Shown here piece by piece: positions 6,627-28,026 of a stretch of 64,000 nucleotides of DNA. A program made the translations under genes and the position numbers. Origin of the DNA: Staphylococcus phage AH12; sequence record OR455461.1; one strand, 5' to 3'. The notes beneath the pieces are model-generated. The model was given only the letters and a program-made list of their open reading frames with translations. It was not told the origin of the DNA and made no database searches. Within the stretch, counting starts at the first letter, position 1, and every line of letters starts with the position of its first letter.

Positions 6627-6654
6627 CTCACCGCAGTTATTCTAAATATTATTA

Positions 6655-6780
6655 TTTAGCTAGACTATATCATTACCATTTAAGGTAGAATATATTTAGT
6701 CGTTGAACACTAATTAAAGTGATGCTGATTAATTTAATAATCTCTCAGCAATTAATATTCTTTACATTTATACATTTCTA
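6655..6780 (-). mobile_element. mini group I intron-like element (copy A)
   Basis: Minus-strand reading gives AAUUGCUGAG (P-like), AAUCAGCAUC (Q-like), GUUCAACGACUAAAUAU (R-like), a hairpin, then GAUAUAGUCU (S-like); boundaries approximate. Confidence 0.55.
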
Positions 6781-6877
6781 TATAACGGAGCCTTTTATTT
6801 GACTCTGAGAGGATTGTTGTTTATTCTTGATCTGTAAAACTTAGACATTTATATTAACTATATTTATTTAAAAAATA

Positions 6878-6995
6878 GATTAGACTATATCATTACCATT
6901 TAAGGTAGAATATATTTAGTCGTTGAACCTCTTATTTGAGGATGCTGATTAATTCAATAATCTCTCAGCAATTAATATTCTTTACATACATATTA
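6878..6995 (-). mobile_element. mini group I intron-like element (copy B)
   Basis: Same P/Q/R/P8/S architecture; IGS-like GAAAUA sits 13 nt before the P3 strand GAAUAU. Confidence 0.55.
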
Positions 6996-7117
6996 TTTCT
7001 AATACATGGGACACAAAATTTATCCGGTGTTCTTGTGGGAATACCACTGTAATTATTAAAGTCAATTGATTTTGCACTTAATTTCTATTTTATTAATCTT
7101 TATAATATAATTTATAA

Positions 7118-7235
7118 AGTATAGACTATATCTTCATTCTATATTATAGAAGAACTATATTTAGTCGTTGAACACTATTTAAAGTGATGCTGATTATTTT
7201 ATTACTCTCAGCAATTAATAATTTAATAATTCTTT
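7118..7235 (-). mobile_element. mini group I intron-like element (copy C)
   Basis: Same architecture; P3 here is GAAUUAU/AUAGUUC, which covaries with other copies; P9-like hairpin CUUUAUAA...UUAUAAAG. Confidence 0.55.
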
Positions 7236-7283
7236 AATTTATATAAAGAACGGCAAATAATTTACCTGATGGTTCATGTTTTA

Positions 7284-8831
7284 CGAATCTATATTAACTT
7301 CATATAGATCCCAGACTATATCTTAAAGTCTATGAAGACCTTTCACTTATTTAGTCGTTGAAGCTCTTTAATTATATTTTCAATCTCTTTTAAATGGTCT
7401 TGTTTATAGTTTATTCTATAAAGAGGAATATTTTTATTGATACAATATTCATCTTTCATTTTATCTTTCATTCTAATCTCTTCTAATTTTTCTTTAGGAA
7501 ATCTGCTACTAGGATTTTTCCTAAAATGCTGTTCACCATCATATTCAATTAGTACATTATAATCTACTAAATAAAAATCAAATCTTAAATTTTGATTTAT
7601 TTTTAGATCTTCAAATGTTTTCTCAAACTCAACATTTGTATTCGTATCAATTAAATATTTTTCTATTTGACGGTGAGCTAATGAATTTGCATACTGTTTT
7701 GCACAAAAAGGACATTTATTTATAGAATCTTTAAAATATTCTGCTTTCATTTTAAAATTATTTCCACATTTTTTATGATGAAAATTGTAAATATTTTTAG
7801 TTCCCTTGAATTCATTATCTAGTATTAAATATTCATTTGAATTAAATTTTTTATTACATATTTCTAGAAATTCTTTTTTTGTTAAGAATTTATTCTCTAA
7901 GCTACAATGTGGACATTTATAATCATTATTTAACATATTATTTGCTAGCATATTAAAACTTCTGTTACATTTTTTATGAAGGAAATTATGTTTAGTTTTA
8001 ATTCCTTTAAACTTGTCATCTAATAATTCGTAATCATCATAATCTTTTCTATTTTCTTTCATTTTTTCATTAAATGACTTTTTATCGTATTTTAATAATT
8101 TAATTTTATCACAATTAGGACAAATAATAACATTATTTAAAAAACTTCCTCCGGTCATTTCAAATTCAGTTCCACAATCATCATGTTTAAATTTTGTTAT
8201 TTTAGAGAATCCATTATACTTTCCTAAAATAGAATACCCACTTATATTTTTCTCTTTTTTAGCCTTTTCTAAAAACTCTTCATTACTATATTTCACAGAG
8301 AAACAACAATTTGGGCATCGATTCATATTGTATAAAAATTCAGAACCTTTCATTGTAAAATATTTTCCACATTCTTCATGGTAAAACTTATGGTGTTTTT
8401 TAGTACTTTTAAAATCATCAATTAATTTATAACCTTCAGTACTTTTTCTTTTGTTTGCTTCTTCCATAAAAGTTTTATTATTGTATTTTAAACCATTTTC
8501 ACATTTAGGACATCTCTTAGAGTAATCTAAAAAACCTCTACCTGTCATTTCAAATTCAGTTCCACAATCAACATGTAATATTTTATGATTAAATTTATAA
8601 CCTTTATACTCTTCTAATAATTCATAATTTCCAATATTCTTTTCTTTTATTTTATTCATATATTCTTCATGTGTTAATTTTACCATTTATTTCCTCACCT
8701 TTCCAGACCAATAGAAAGGATTTTAATATAATTAAATTAGCATGCTGATTACTTTTAAAGCTTCTCAGCAATTAAAGTGATTTTTCATTTATTGTTACCA
8801 ATATAAGGAAGCTAAAACATAATTTGTCTTT
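7284..8831 (-). mobile_element. group I intron-like element carrying an endonuclease ORF (interrupts RNAP beta-like gene)
   Basis: The P/Q half is at about 8725-8790 (AUGCUGAUUA ... CUCAGCAAUUAA). The R/P8/S half is at 7311-7370. P9 hairpin GAUCUAUAU..AUAUAGAUUC is followed by G at 7284. The 447-aa ORF lies between the two halves and its C-terminus overlaps the R box. Confidence 0.5.
7343..8686 (-). CDS. intron-encoded zinc-ribbon-repeat protein with C-terminal PD-(D/E)xK (Vsr/DUF559-like) endonuclease domain; putative homing endonuclease
   Basis: Five repeats of an H-x2-CG-x2-F-x-M-...-CP-x-C zinc-ribbon unit; C-terminus RFDFYLVDYNVLIEYDGEQHF matches the Vsr/DUF559-type nuclease signature; the final codons (NLRQLNK) are encoded by the intron R box. 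Confidence 0.6.
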   Translation of the reverse strand: MVKLTHEEYMNKIKEKNIGNYELLEEYKGYKFNHKILHVDCGTEFEMTGRGFLDYSKRCPKCENGLKYNNKTFMEEANKRKSTEGYKLIDDFKSTKKHHKFYHEECGKYFTMKGSEFLYNMNRCPNCCFSVKYSNEEFLEKAKKEKNISGYSILGKYNGFSKITKFKHDDCGTEFEMTGGSFLNNVIICPNCDKIKLLKYDKKSFNEKMKENRKDYDDYELLDDKFKGIKTKHNFLHKKCNRSFNMLANNMLNNDYKCPHCSLENKFLTKKEFLEICNKKFNSNEYLILDNEFKGTKNIYNFHHKKCGNNFKMKAEYFKDSINKCPFCAKQYANSLAHRQIEKYLIDTNTNVEFEKTFEDLKINQNLRFDFYLVDYNVLIEYDGEQHFRKNPSSRFPKEKLEEIRMKDKMKDEYCINKNIPLYRINYKQDHLKEIENIIKELQRLNK

Positions 8832-9384
8832 ACTTCAGGTGATACAAATCTCCAACCATAAATGTTCTATTACTAACATCTAGTCGGTTTTTCTTAATAT
8901 TGTATTTATTGAATAAGTATCTGATTTGTTCAGATTCAATATTATCAAAGAAAGGTGCTTGATGAAGTACAATACCATTTTTAATAAAGTCTTCAATAGC
9001 TTCTTTAGTTTCTTCACTATCTAAACTATCAAATAATCTTACATAATTATCATAAGATACTTTATCTGCATCTTTGATATATTCTAATAAATATTCTTTC
9101 TGCTTATTAACATCATCTAACTTACTAATACGATGTCTAATAACGCTTGAAATATGATTTAATTCTAATTCCACTAATGCTGAAGGATTTCCTCTATTAA
9201 TAATACCCATATTATTATGAATTAAGTCTACTCTTTTCTTAATAGGAGTTTTATTATCTTTGGTGAAATCTTCTCCATCAAATTCAGTAATCATTGGCAT
9301 TTCATTATCTGGAACAATCTTAGCTACTACACCTTTTCCACCGTATCTTGTGCTTATTTTTGCATTTATGTTAATGAACTTCAT
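8830..9384 (-). CDS. rpoB-like: RNA polymerase beta-subunit fragment (exon c; real exon probably begins at 9362)
   Basis: KISTRYGGKGVVAKIVPDNEMPMI..GIINRGNPS matches the beta region [27 protein letters not shown]; it ends VGDLYHLK, comparable to VGYMYMLK. Confidence 0.7.
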   Translation of the reverse strand: MKFININAKISTRYGGKGVVAKIVPDNEMPMITEFDGEDFTKDNKTPIKKRVDLIHNNMGIINRGNPSALVELELNHISSVIRHRISKLDDVNKQKEYLLEYIKDADKVSYDNYVRLFDSLDSEETKEAIEDFIKNGIVLHQAPFFDNIESEQIRYLFNKYNIKKNRLDVSNRTFMVGDLYHLK

Positions 9385-9545
9385 AGACTTTACTAAGAAG
9401 ATCAGACTATATCATTACCTTCATATAAGGTAGAATATATTTAGTCGTTGAACACTATTTATAGTGATGCTGATTAATTTTATAATTCTCAGCAATTAAT
9501 ATTCTTTACATATAAATTTTCATTCATAAGGGACCTATTAATTTG
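9363..9545 (-). mobile_element. mini group I intron (183 nt) in RNAP beta-like gene
   Basis: The 5' exon ends GGAU and pairs with the IGS GUCC. Core boxes P, Q, R and S are present, with P3 GAAUAU/AUAUUC and P8 UACCU/AGGUA. The predicted join ...KKPLVHG|SKISTRYGGKGVV has exactly the same length as E. coli [25 protein letters not shown]. Confidence 0.6.
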
Positions 9546-25450: not shown

Positions 25451-25752
25451 TTATTCTTCTTGATCATAATCAGTTCTAGTATCTTTAAGTAAATCTGAAT
25501 CTATACCAGCACCTAATAAATAATAGTAAGTGGTATTCAAAGTAGTTTTATCAGAAAGATCGTCTGGTAAATCTTCTAGACGAGTATAACCATACATTGA
25601 AATGTTTTTATTCATTTCCTGTTTAGCATTCATAGAGTCTGAACGAGGACCCATTAATTCTCTTAATATATCTTGAGACCCAATTGCTCTTAATGCTGAA
25701 GCTTCCATATTTGATACAGAAGCTACCTTGTCCGCACCTGAGAGTTGCGATT
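25451..25752 (-). CDS. 3' exon of an intron-split gene (function unknown)
   Basis: The in-frame GC-rich coding segment QLSGADKVASVSN precedes the annotated Met with no start codon. It begins right after the P9/omega-G of intron copy 25.8k. Confidence 0.4.
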
Positions 25753-25900
25753 ATCCTATATATTTCTATATAAGTCAGACTATATCTTATACTCTTTATG
25801 AGTACCATTATATTTAGTCGTTGAACAATCAATTTGATTGATGCTGATTAACTTTAATTTTCTCAGCAATTAATAATATTATCATTATCATATTACTATA
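25746..25900 (-). mobile_element. mini group I intron-like element (copy 25.8k)
   Basis: P/Q/R/P8/S boxes; P9 hairpin CUUAUAUA-GAAA-UAUAUAGG; ends ...AUAAUCG before CAACUCUCAGGU. Confidence 0.5.
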
Positions 25901-26019
25901 ATAAGCGGCCAAAATTTTTTCATTAAAACCGGTTTTCATTGATCTCGAGGAAGCGTCTAGACTGTATGCGTTTTTCTTTGAGAGGAGCTGCTGTACAATA
26001 ACTTCATACACTATTTTTA

Positions 26020-26150
26020 ATTAGTGTTTAGACTATATATTCATCCTATTAGGAGTTTTAATTTTAGTCGTTGAACTTTATTAAGATTATTCACTTAATA
26101 TTAGATGCTGATTAGCTTCATAAACTTTCCCAGCAATTTAAAAAATTTTA
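26020..26150 (-). mobile_element. mini group I intron-like element (copy 26.0k)
   Basis: Variant boxes AAAUUGCUGGG (P), GCUAAUCAGCAUC (Q), GUUCAACGACUAAAAU (R), GAUAUAGUCU (S); P8 is UCCUA-U-UAGGA. Confidence 0.5.
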
Positions 26151-26226
26151 CATATACATTACTGCATAAGGAGGCTACAACAGTATTTAACCTCTTAACA
26201 TGTAAGTCATTTATCTTTACTATATT

Positions 26227-26354
26227 CATTTTATAGATGAGACTATATCTTCTTTGCCATATATTTAGTCGTTGAACAATTCAATTGATGCTGATCAACT
26301 TTAAATGTCTTTTCAGCAGTTAATATGATTTTAATTGAGCTCATACATAAGTTA
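26227..26354 (-). mobile_element. mini group I intron-like element (copy 26.2k)
   Basis: The upstream exon ends UUGGGU and pairs with the IGS GCUCAA. The P1 pair is identical to that of GyrB intron 2. The last annotated codons of ORF 26341-28026 (LTYV plus stop) are intronic. Confidence 0.5.
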
Positions 26355-28026
26355 ACCCAACTGGTACTTTATATCTAGTTCTTAATGGATCTTCTTTATT
26401 TCCATCATGTCTATAATAAACAAATTCATTCATAGGAACTTCTAATTTGTCTAAAGCTTCTTGTATTTGATTAATATCAGCTTCAGATTTATTAGGTAAA
26501 ACTTCTATATAGAAATTCTCATCACTATTTATGAAACGTTTAATATATCTCATAAATTCTTCATCATTCATTTCATCGTAAAATGATTTATAATTTCTCA
26601 TATTACTTTGATCTTTATCTAATGAAGATATAACATCAAGTATTTTATTTTGAATTTCTTGACGTTTCTTTTTATTGTCGCTTACTGCTTCATTTAAGAT
26701 TGATTCTGGTTCTAGAATAGTTTCATTTAAAGTATTTTCATTGAATTCCATAAAGAATCTTTCGATTATTTCTATATCACTAGATATTGCTTTTTGGAAT
26801 TCAAAACTAGCAGGAATTTCTTTAACACTAAATTTGAATTCTCCATTATCTTTAACATTCTCATCGAAACCAAATTTGTCTGCACTATATCTATTAATAT
26901 CTTCCATATTACCAAATATAATTGGACTATCAATACTAAAGTCTGCTAATACATATCCTTGTCCATTATATGACACAGGGAAAAGTTTTATTCTATTTTT
27001 AGATGGTTCTACATATGAAATTAACTCTATAGATTTGATCCCTAATTTCTTTTCCAATATTTTAAAATAAAGTAAAGATAATAGGTTAGGATTTATTCTT
27101 CCTTGATCTGGTTTAATAGAGAAGTTTTTATCTAATATCATTGAAGGAGTTACTGTATAATATACTTCTTCAGATTTATCTTCAGTAAATACAGGTTTAG
27201 AATTTTTAGTTTTATTATATAGGTAATTAAAAACATCTAATTCATTTTCTAATTGATACTCATAAATTATATCATTTAATTTATTATCAAATTCATAGTC
27301 TCCATAGAATTTATAGATGTCAGTTTCATTATATTTCAAAACTTCTTTATTTGTGAATAAAGGTGAATTGAGTACATTATTCTCTGTAAATATTTTATTG
27401 TATATAATATCTTCTTTAGAATCTGAGAAAATATTATTTCCCATAGATTCTAAAACTTTTACTAAAGTTCTTAATTTAGCATCATTATAGAAATTATACT
27501 TATCTTTATTATAACTTACATATTCTTCAGAATTTAAATACTCACTAAAATCTTTTCTTTTAGTTGAATCTTTACTTAGAAATCTAACTTTAGTAACTTC
27601 TGTAAGCTTATCAATATCATTCAAAATAGTTTTAATACTGCCAGTATCGTTAATAACGATAGGATTTCCACCTTTATAATCTCCAGCATAATCTATTAAT
27701 ATATCTTCTTCTCTACTCTTTTGATTTTGAAGAACGATGAATCTAATTTGTGTATTATCATTAAAATACTTAATTAAACTAATATCAAACCAACAAGAAT
27801 TTCCTTTTTTATCATGAATTTGATTTTCATTATAATCTAATAGAAAATCTATTTCTGATTCAGTGACTAATATTTCTGTTTCATTCACTAAATCAATAGG
27901 AGATTTAATTACACTGATATTATCTGATCCACATTCAGAACAAGATGTAATATCTTCATTATATTCTTGAACTTTGCTACAAGAATTACATCTAACGTAT
28001 TTATTTTTCAATTCATTCACTTCCAA
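26341..28026 (-). CDS. zinc-ribbon-containing protein, probable 5' exon of an intron-split gene
   Basis: 561 aa; N-terminal CNSCS...CSECGS zinc ribbon; the C-terminus runs into an intron (coding probably ends at 26355). Confidence 0.5.
   Translation of the reverse strand: MEVNELKNKYVRCNSCSKVQEYNEDITSCSECGSDNISVIKSPIDLVNETEILVTESEIDFLLDYNENQIHDKKGNSCWFDISLIKYFNDNTQIRFIVLQNQKSREEDILIDYAGDYKGGNPIVINDTGSIKTILNDIDKLTEVTKVRFLSKDSTKRKDFSEYLNSEEYVSYNKDKYNFYNDAKLRTLVKVLESMGNNIFSDSKEDIIYNKIFTENNVLNSPLFTNKEVLKYNETDIYKFYGDYEFDNKLNDIIYEYQLENELDVFNYLYNKTKNSKPVFTEDKSEEVYYTVTPSMILDKNFSIKPDQGRINPNLLSLLYFKILEKKLGIKSIELISYVEPSKNRIKLFPVSYNGQGYVLADFSIDSPIIFGNMEDINRYSADKFGFDENVKDNGEFKFSVKEIPASFEFQKAISSDIEIIERFFMEFNENTLNETILEPESILNEAVSDNKKKRQEIQNKILDVISSLDKDQSNMRNYKSFYDEMNDEEFMRYIKRFINSDENFYIEVLPNKSEADINQIQEALDKLEVPMNEFVYYRHDGNKEDPLRTRYKVPVGLTYV

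Follow-up and report, generated by a model that had tools for sequence, protein, structure and literature searches.

In the 64-kb window analysed here, a stretch of 64,000 nucleotides (nt) from Staphylococcus phage AH12 (OR455461.1), every long open reading frame (ORF) lies on the minus strand. One of these, at 7343..8686, sits amid fragments of a gene annotated 'non-viral RNA polymerase beta subunit', with a UvsX/RecA-like gene as its neighbour, and encodes five zinc modules followed by a nuclease domain. With a probability of roughly 0.8, we consider this ORF to be a predicted site-specific homing endonuclease, composed of CapR-like zinc modules and an EDxHD/Vsr-like nuclease and carried in a group I intron (intron C) of the polymerase gene. 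Close relatives are the Staphylococcus jumbo phages Machias (MW349128) and vB_StaM_PB50 (OR770614; PB50 below), with 94-96% identity across the studied region. Phages of this type are AR9/PBS1-like, with presumed uracil-substituted DNA and many introns and homing endonuclease genes (bioRxiv 10.1101/2020.12.14.422802). An orthologue of the ORF was found in a diverged phage represented by the Logan contig L003. The ORF and its domains are:

7343..8686, minus strand: predicted homing-endonuclease ORF, 447 amino acids, ATG start, TGA stop at 7345..7343
8501..8686, minus strand: zinc module 1, residues 1-62 (H38, C41, C59, C62), from the regular expression, alignment and secondary-structure pattern
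8306..8500, minus strand: zinc module 2, residues 63-127 (H103, C106, C124, C127), sharing 71% identity with module 2 in L003
8111..8305, minus strand: zinc module 3, residues 128-192 (H168, C171, C189, C192)
7904..8110, minus strand: zinc module 4, residues 193-261 (H237, C240, C258, C261)
7703..7903, minus strand: zinc module 5, residues 262-328 (H304, C307, C325, C328)
7346..7696, minus strand: Vsr-like (EDxHD-type) PD-(D/E)xK nuclease domain, residues 331-447

A Shine-Dalgarno-like sequence, GGAAAGGTGAGG, is found at 8704..8693, upstream of the ATG of the ORF. A regular-expression scan of the protein returned exactly five [H]xxC-(10-30)-CxxC sites (residues 38-62, 103-127, 168-192, 237-261 and 304-328). 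A first-pass annotation, made by a model from the sequence alone, had described five tandem units of the form HxxCGxxFxM…CPxC; all five units were recovered, four of them in that exact form, while unit 4 has CN for CG. The units (~65 amino acids each) share 30-46% pairwise identity, and the AlphaFold2 model of the full-length protein (mean predicted local distance difference test score, pLDDT, of 88) repeats a pattern of helix, three strands and short helix five times. C258 and C261 of module 4 are invariant or nearly so across the family. For these repeats, the best Foldseek match of the full-length model was the DUF4379 protein 6yxx_E2. The best Pfam match of the protein itself was Zn_ribbon_8 over residues 299-330 (module 5), at 29 bits and below the 34.4 cutoff; the Pfam check suggested by the annotation thus gave zinc-ribbon and DUF2726 matches that were all sub-threshold.

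The same annotation had called a five-finger array unusual, which does not agree with published arrays of 3-5 modules (PMC12350094) or with the frequency of long homologues observed here. About one-fifth of 96 homologues are at least 430 amino acids long, and ~8% of the best 150 nuclease-domain matches have an N-terminal region roomy enough for at least five units. Counting units by regular expression undercounts homologues with a degenerate first ligand pair, so the length of each protein and the point where its nuclease domain starts were used as well. Five modules is the upper end of the range and is not exceptional.

The C-terminal domain contains the motif RFDFYLVDYNVLIEYDGEQHF (residues 368-388). 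Among 40 aligned members of the family, D370, E381, G384, H387, D408 and K411 are invariant and D383 is also conserved; across the same alignment the number of N-terminal units varies and the C-terminal ~110 residues are conserved. The nuclease-domain model was of high confidence (pLDDT 93.7, predicted template modelling score, pTM, of 0.85), and Foldseek with the full-length model found Vsr at a probability of 1.0. RAP domains and other PD-(D/E)xK nucleases were among the lower-ranked matches of the nuclease domain. Structure comparison therefore bears out the Vsr/DUF559-type PD-(D/E)xK fold of the first-pass annotation. The 17-residue spacing between D370 and H387 equals that between D196 and H213 of the homing endonuclease I-Bth0305I and, judged by sequence alignment and spacing, D370, H387 and D408 probably occupy EDxHD positions. 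A Pfam scan of the protein gave no HNH, NUMOD or helix-turn-helix match, and a search of NCBIfam returned nothing useful. Identity as an HNH endonuclease was rejected, as no HNH or beta-beta-alpha-metal motif was matched and the sole nuclease-like domain has the Vsr fold.

The polymerase gene that hosts the ORF encodes the C-terminal part of the non-virion RNA polymerase beta subunit and is interrupted by six introns (A-F), whose boundaries were set by comparison with close relatives. Intron C carries the ORF, and its elements, together with the exon that follows it, are:

7284..8831, minus strand: group I intron C, 1548 nt, with the 5' splice site after CTGAAGU and G7284 as last base
8808..8812, minus strand: internal guide sequence GCUUC, forming P1 with the exon end GAAGU (8836..8832), with a U·G pair at the splice site; the same in L003
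8775..8780, minus strand: P3 5' strand UCACUU, complement of AAGUGA at 7348..7343
8743..8770, minus strand: P4 and a tiny enclosed P5, UGCUGA (8770..8765) with UCAGCA (8748..8743), the P and Q elements; invariant in 11 introns
8705..8741, minus strand: 5' strand of the extended P6, in the 5' leader of the ORF
8693..8719, minus strand: local hairpin, CCUUUC (8719..8714) with GAAAGG (8702..8697), overlapping the Shine-Dalgarno GGAAAGGUGAGG; also in L003
7363..7400, minus strand: 3' strand of the extended P6, doubling as ORF codons for …DHLKEIENIIKEL
7343..7362, minus strand: R element, with J6/7 UUCAAC, the P7 5' strand GACUA (7356..7352) and the P3 3' strand AAGUGA (7348..7343)
7284..7342, minus strand: 3' end, with the P8 hairpin, the S element with the P7 3' strand UAGUC (7318..7314), the P9 hairpin (7311..7285) and the terminal G7284
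7264..7283, minus strand: 20-nt micro-exon between introns C and D, UAAAACAUGAACCAUCAGGU, encoding LKHEPSG

The first-pass annotation had placed the ORF inside an intron-like element, and two lines of evidence agree with it. The classical group I elements flank the ORF on either side (minus strand: P AAUUGCUGAG, Q AAUCAGCA, R GUUCAACGACUAAAUA and S AGAUAUAGUCU), and the excision of intron C together with the five ORF-less introns restores the polymerase ORF. This in silico removal of introns A-F gives a continuous ORF of 712 amino acids, in which 590 of 714 aligned positions (83%, with 3 gap positions) are identical to phage S6; in both S6 and PALS_2 the same polymerase gene is uninterrupted and encodes 713 amino acids. 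The spliced ORF joins V|GEME within a conserved beta-subunit motif.

The pairings of the ribozyme core were examined alongside the ten ORF-less group I introns of the window, which bring the total to eleven introns. P4 and P7 are invariant across the ten ORF-less copies, P7 being GACUA/UAGUC in intron C. In P3, three of six pairs change on both sides among these ten copies and 98.4% of the cells are paired, compared with at most 47% when the partner is slid; this pairing score was reached by none of 500 shuffles, and intron C adds a further variant pair, UCACUU/AAGUGA. From a MAFFT alignment, RNAalifold retrieved no pairings besides the invariant P4 and P7. Since P5, P6, P8 and P9 were misaligned by MAFFT, the pairing test was limited to P3, P4, P7 and two P6 pairs. 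The 3' end of intron C reads …GAUUCG. From these pairings, the splice-site U·G, the terminal G and the restored frame, intron C is predicted to splice as a group I intron.

An alternative is that there is no intron at all, and that the polymerase subunit is made from separate small genes with the ORF as a free-standing endonuclease gene in an intergenic spacer. The PB50 record, with four separate coding sequences for 'non-viral RNA polymerase beta subunit', is in keeping with it, as is the failure of Rfam to find a group I intron in the window, either at the gathering threshold or at E values up to 10. Rfam was likewise blank at the Twort, LY01, PBS1 and L003 loci; as the introns of Twort and LY01 were also missed, the Rfam model appears insensitive to small or ORF-split introns, and the intron structure was for this reason tested directly. 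Against separate genes stand the P/Q/R/S core, the P3 covariation, the splice-site U·G and the terminal G. Moreover, exons of 20, 44 and 63 nt in the polymerase gene are too short to be genes, the product of exact excision is collinear with that of the unsplit gene in S6 and PALS_2, and the Machias record already annotates the polymerase gene as a six-exon join. We therefore regard the alternative without an intron as scarcely credible.

The ORF fills the P6 loop of intron C, and its end (GAG CTT CAA CGA CTA AAT AAG TGA) runs across P6-3', J6/7 and P7-5' before stopping in P3-3'. The stop codon had been put inside the P7 core; it does lie in the core, in the P3 3' strand adjacent to P7 rather than in P7 itself. 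The leader of the ORF (8741..8705) pairs with its final codons (7400..7363) in a P6 extension of ~30 base pairs (bp), with a duplex energy of -26.2 kcal/mol. The other 49-nt windows of the ORF all fell short of this stability (0 of 176, mean -11.6), as did all of 300 shuffles. An equivalent extended P6 is present in the L003 intron (-22.5 kcal/mol, 0 of 172 windows), with a different sequence and compensatory changes.

The local hairpin CCUUUC/GAAAGG competes with the extended P6, the two being mutually exclusive, and the pairing of the Shine-Dalgarno in this hairpin may have a regulatory role. Because the last ~19 codons of the ORF are also the P6 3' strand, J6/7, the P7 5' strand and the P3 3' strand, translation of the tail and folding of the core should exclude each other. 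At the other end of the intron, the very junction of the exon with intron C creates a UAA in the exon frame (AAG U|AA, window 8832..8830), so that ribosomes on unspliced RNA would halt immediately. In introns A, B and D, too, a stop in frame is reached within 2-10 codons.

Site C, the insertion site of intron C, is polymorphic among related phages:

Window phage: intron at site C, gene of five modules, 447 amino acids
Machias: intron at site C, a different gene of the same family, three modules, 318 amino acids
L003 (Logan contig, diverged phage): intron at site C, orthologue, 53% identical, collinear modules
PB50, MarsHill, LY01, S6 and PALS_2: no intron at site C, no gene

The L003 orthologue shares 71% identity with the window protein in module 2 and 63% in the nuclease domain. 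PB50 does not have the window segments 6846..7021 and ~7086..8824, so introns C, D and E are missing together while A, B and F are kept; Machias does not have window ~10111..10286. Whether sites A, B and F are occupied varies independently of C, as does the occupancy of a site specific to LY01.

The flanks of intron C are 92-96% identical between Machias and the window, whereas the enclosed gene differs. The Machias ORF (L002 2453..3409) has no unit-to-unit orthology with the window ORF and its nuclease core is 31% identical, yet the last 43 codons of the two ORFs are identical. Judged from this comparison, Machias and the window differ by an apparent cassette exchange, the junction of which lies inside the nuclease domain, upstream of the part required by the ribozyme. 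In the 20-nt micro-exon, the window differs from PB50 by seven synonymous changes at +7 to +19 (among them Ser AGT versus TCA), against none in the 179 nt upstream of site C. The micro-exon differences would fit a C-D(-E) block gained or lost by recombining with a diverged partner, as in homing with co-conversion. No convincing pseudo-palindrome like that of the I-Bth0305I target was seen at site C.

A further intron was observed in LY01, ~11 nt downstream of site C. With it, three insertion sites fall in ~20 nt of the conserved beta-subunit segment …YHLKLKHEPSG…, making this an insertion hot spot.

The ORF-less introns of the window are:

10286..10114, minus strand: intron A, ORF-less
9545..9363, minus strand: intron B, ORF-less
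7263..7085, minus strand: intron D, 179 nt, ORF-less, possible hitchhiker
7021..6846, minus strand: intron E, 176 nt, ORF-less, possible hitchhiker
6801..6634, minus strand: intron F, ORF-less
~25745..26370, three copies; ~38075..38245; ~38815..39000: ORF-less introns elsewhere in the window

The five with mapped ends are 168-183 nt long, shorter than the ~205-nt Azoarcus intron, a small benchmark, and their P4, P7 and J6/7 cores are near-identical across copies. Rfam detected none of the ten. Introns A-F each begin after a U that can pair with the internal-guide G, and each end in G. The GyrB gene (38976..40511 and 38208..38792; HATPase_c, DNA_gyraseB and Toprim) is split within its Toprim motif (…IIITSDAD|) by an ORF-less intron, and a second gyrB intron lies ~0.75 kb downstream of it. 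The gene with three introns at 25.7-26.4 kb (ORF 26341..28026) gave no Pfam match.

The first-pass annotation had named the ORF as the candidate enzyme that mobilises this mini-intron family, with gyrB among its targets. The candidacy is supported for its own intron. A single enzyme moving all of the ~ten ORF-less mini-introns (in the rpoB-like gene, gyrB and other genes) might be suspected from the nearly identical mini-intron cores, from insertion sites that all end in RRRT, and from the ORF being the only homing gene of this family in the 64-kb window, present in one copy. Yet the purine-rich RRRT directly before the splice site is the only common feature of insertion sites A-F, and a shared target motif for all introns was rejected, since the exon flanks of the eleven sites have no extended common motif. 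A multi-module enzyme would also be expected to read a long, specific site, as I-Bth0305I does over up to 60 bp, and the occupancy of A, B and F does not follow that of C, only D and E co-varying with C in PB50. Mobilisation of the whole family by this enzyme is thus very improbable. If the enzyme is specific for site C as expected, a gyrB target is not expected, and the gyrB introns as well as sites A, B and F require another explanation. Introns D and E, 20 and 83 exon nt from C, could at most be co-conversion hitchhikers.

Homologues of the protein are widespread. The ORF matches PHROG 559 (E 1e-69), tblastn found a homologue in 419 phage records, mostly of Staphylococcus, Enterococcus, Streptococcus, Bacillus and Lactococcus phages, and 96 relatives were recovered from a large protein collection. 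A nuclease-domain profile matched 48,653 representatives of 50%-identity clusters at E ≤1e-3 (24,842 at E ≤1e-10), a family size that agrees with PMC12350094. In Pfam, the zinc units of the homologues score above threshold for the CapR homology domain and for DUF4379 ('probable treble clef zinc finger'); homologues match DUF723 as well, and some of their nuclease domains pass DUF2726. The three best nuclease-domain matches are proteins of ~600 amino acids with two matched stretches each, and may be tandem or fused double endonucleases. Annotations differ among homologues ('HNH endonuclease', 'homing endonuclease', 'VSR homing endonuclease', 'intron-encoded protein A'), and the 'HNH' label on PHROG 559 and many RefSeq homologues is a systematic misannotation.

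The contexts of these genes are equally varied. Twort IepA lies in a TerL intron, between the R and S elements (P8 loop); the LY01 homologue (L005 3990..5063, minus strand; 358 amino acids, three modules, 30% identical) lies in an RNA polymerase intron near site B; and that of Streptococcus thermophilus phage P7154 is free-standing, between terS and terL. With members in varied introns and free-standing, the gene family moves independently of any single intron, as homing endonuclease genes of phages usually do. No recognisable R element was found near the end of the LY01 homologue ORF. Taken with the position of the Twort ORF in the P8 loop, this indicates that the overlap with the ribozyme core is a trait of the intron lineage and not of the protein family.

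A mechanism can be proposed for the ORF as the homing endonuclease of intron C. The ORF would be translated from its own Shine-Dalgarno and ATG, ribosomes on the unspliced message stopping at the junction UAA. The five treble-clef-like zinc modules would then bind a long stretch of DNA across the intron-less junction …TATCACCTGAAGT|TAAAACA… (short form …CCTGAAGT|TAAAAC…) in a co-infecting relative, and the Vsr-like C-terminal domain would cut nearby using D370, H387, D408 and Mg2+, possibly as a dimer by analogy with I-Bth0305I. Recombinational repair from the intron-bearing genome would copy the intron and ORF into the cut site, and flanking DNA, including the 20-nt micro-exon and the downstream ORF-less introns D and E, could be copied along with them. 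As the tail of the ORF doubles as P6, J6/7, P7 and P3, translation of the ORF end and folding of the core should be mutually exclusive.

Besides the silence of Rfam, several points weigh against this assignment. The first EDxHD position (E170 of I-Bth0305I, E25 of Vsr) is H338 in the window protein; the L003 orthologue likewise has H at this position and the Machias protein has V, against a family consensus of E (SKGE). Searches of the PDB with the protein, the full-length profile and the nuclease-domain profile gave no significant nuclease (best 3hrl, E 0.48), the only Pfam nuclease match of the protein was DUF2726 (E 0.054), and the DUF559 and DUF2726 models were not significantly matched; the fold was recognised by structure comparison only. 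A literature search found no biochemical study, and no member of the zinc-module subgroup shown to cleave DNA. As the phage DNA probably has uracil for thymine, target recognition may differ from expectation.

The loss of the first motif residue raises the alternative that the ORF is a decaying or domesticated copy, in which the zinc modules still bind DNA or RNA (as a CapR-like repressor or splicing helper) with neither cutting nor homing. H338, and H or V at this position in the closest relatives, would suit such a copy; homing endonuclease genes often decay after fixation at a site, and CapR exemplifies the domestication of a homing endonuclease into a DNA-binding derivative (PMC8096241). 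Nevertheless, the ORF is full length with D370, E381, H387, D408 and K411 intact, and site C is still polymorphic among close relatives. The L003 orthologue, at 53% identity, retains the length, the five modules and the nuclease domain, and this retention of the whole layout argues for purifying selection on the entire protein. As for the residue itself, E170 of I-Bth0305I is merely said to be one that 'might participate' in catalysis. We therefore consider domestication unlikely, and an active homing endonuclease the better account of the ORF.

It is conceivable, though in our view doubtful, that the ~65-amino-acid zinc modules form a modular DNA-reading array, each reading one short block of base pairs, whose number and order are reshuffled in nature to retarget the enzyme or tighten its specificity. 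If so, the locus would be a natural experiment, with unrelated five- and three-module cassettes in the same intron at the same site and with an identical 43-codon tail. If true, the intron would dictate the 3' end of the ORF, cassettes would be exchangeable and translation of the tail would gate splicing.

The value of the locus is as a cleanly bounded, apparently intact example of a very large homing-endonuclease class, with ~48,600 nuclease-domain cluster representatives. It supplies intron-less targets (PB50, S6, PALS_2 and MarsHill), a diverged orthologue in L003 and a three-module alternative in Machias, and is thus a convenient system for asking how the modules read DNA, whether uracil DNA is needed and how an ORF tail in the ribozyme core relates to translation and splicing. 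For the family as a whole, the widespread label 'HNH endonuclease' is corrected as well. The tail in P6/P7/P3, the cassette exchange, the putative co-conversion signature in the micro-exon and the ORF-less introns of 168-183 nt are noteworthy details of the locus; they are unlikely to surprise specialists much and leave the current understanding of homing unchanged.

The architecture, the introns and homing genes of this phage clade and the six-exon join of Machias are already known. The regulatory arrangement may resemble that of I-TevI, from the td intron of phage T4, by analogy. I-TevI has its own ribosome-binding site that a hairpin can sequester, its 3' end lies in the ribozyme core, and its translation and splicing interfere; its nuclease is of the GIY-YIG type, accompanied by a single zinc finger and a helix-turn-helix. 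The E. coli Vsr protein (PDB 1CW0, 1VSR), with which DUF559 proteins (PDB 3HRL) are grouped, is a nickase of mismatch repair. It consists of one domain, has its own zinc site and intercalating tryptophans and, unlike the ORF studied here, is not mobile and has no DNA-binding array. I-Bth0305I, which defines the EDxHD family (E170, D196, N208, H213 and D222), comes from the recA group I intron of Bacillus phage 0305phi8-36 (PDB 3R3P) and contacts up to 60 bp (PMC3239194). It has the Vsr-like catalytic fold in common with our ORF, at 17% nuclease-domain identity and with no sequence-level match. Its N-terminal region carries two NUMOD2/helix-turn-helix motifs and no zinc modules, in place of the five zinc modules found here, its first motif residue is E instead of H, and its ORF interrupts P5 rather than P6.

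CapR of the Vibrio PLE satellite, whose zinc cysteines are required for DNA binding (PMC8096241), and the T5orf172 homing endonucleases of ICP1 have a related zinc DNA-binding module, as seen from the CapR matches of the homologues; they combine a single module with a T5orf172 domain of the GIY-YIG superfamily or with none, whereas the ORF combines an array with a Vsr-like nuclease. The closest likeness was published in Nucleic Acids Research in August 2025 for homing endonucleases in the group II and group I introns of AR9/PBS1-type phages (PMC12350094), an account that rests on profile searches and structure prediction. Those enzymes share with the ORF an array of 3-5 modules of ~60 amino acids, related to CapR, DUF4379 and DUF723, followed by a C-terminal EDxHD/Vsr-like domain of ~100 amino acids; they likewise lie in introns of jumbo-phage RNA polymerase genes and belong to a very large, mostly unannotated family. 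What distinguishes the present case is its host, a Staphylococcus jumbo phage, its location in a group I intron of the gene for the C-terminal part of the non-virion polymerase beta subunit, its five modules, the upper end of the range, and an ORF 3' end that forms part of P6, P7 and P3 in the ribozyme.

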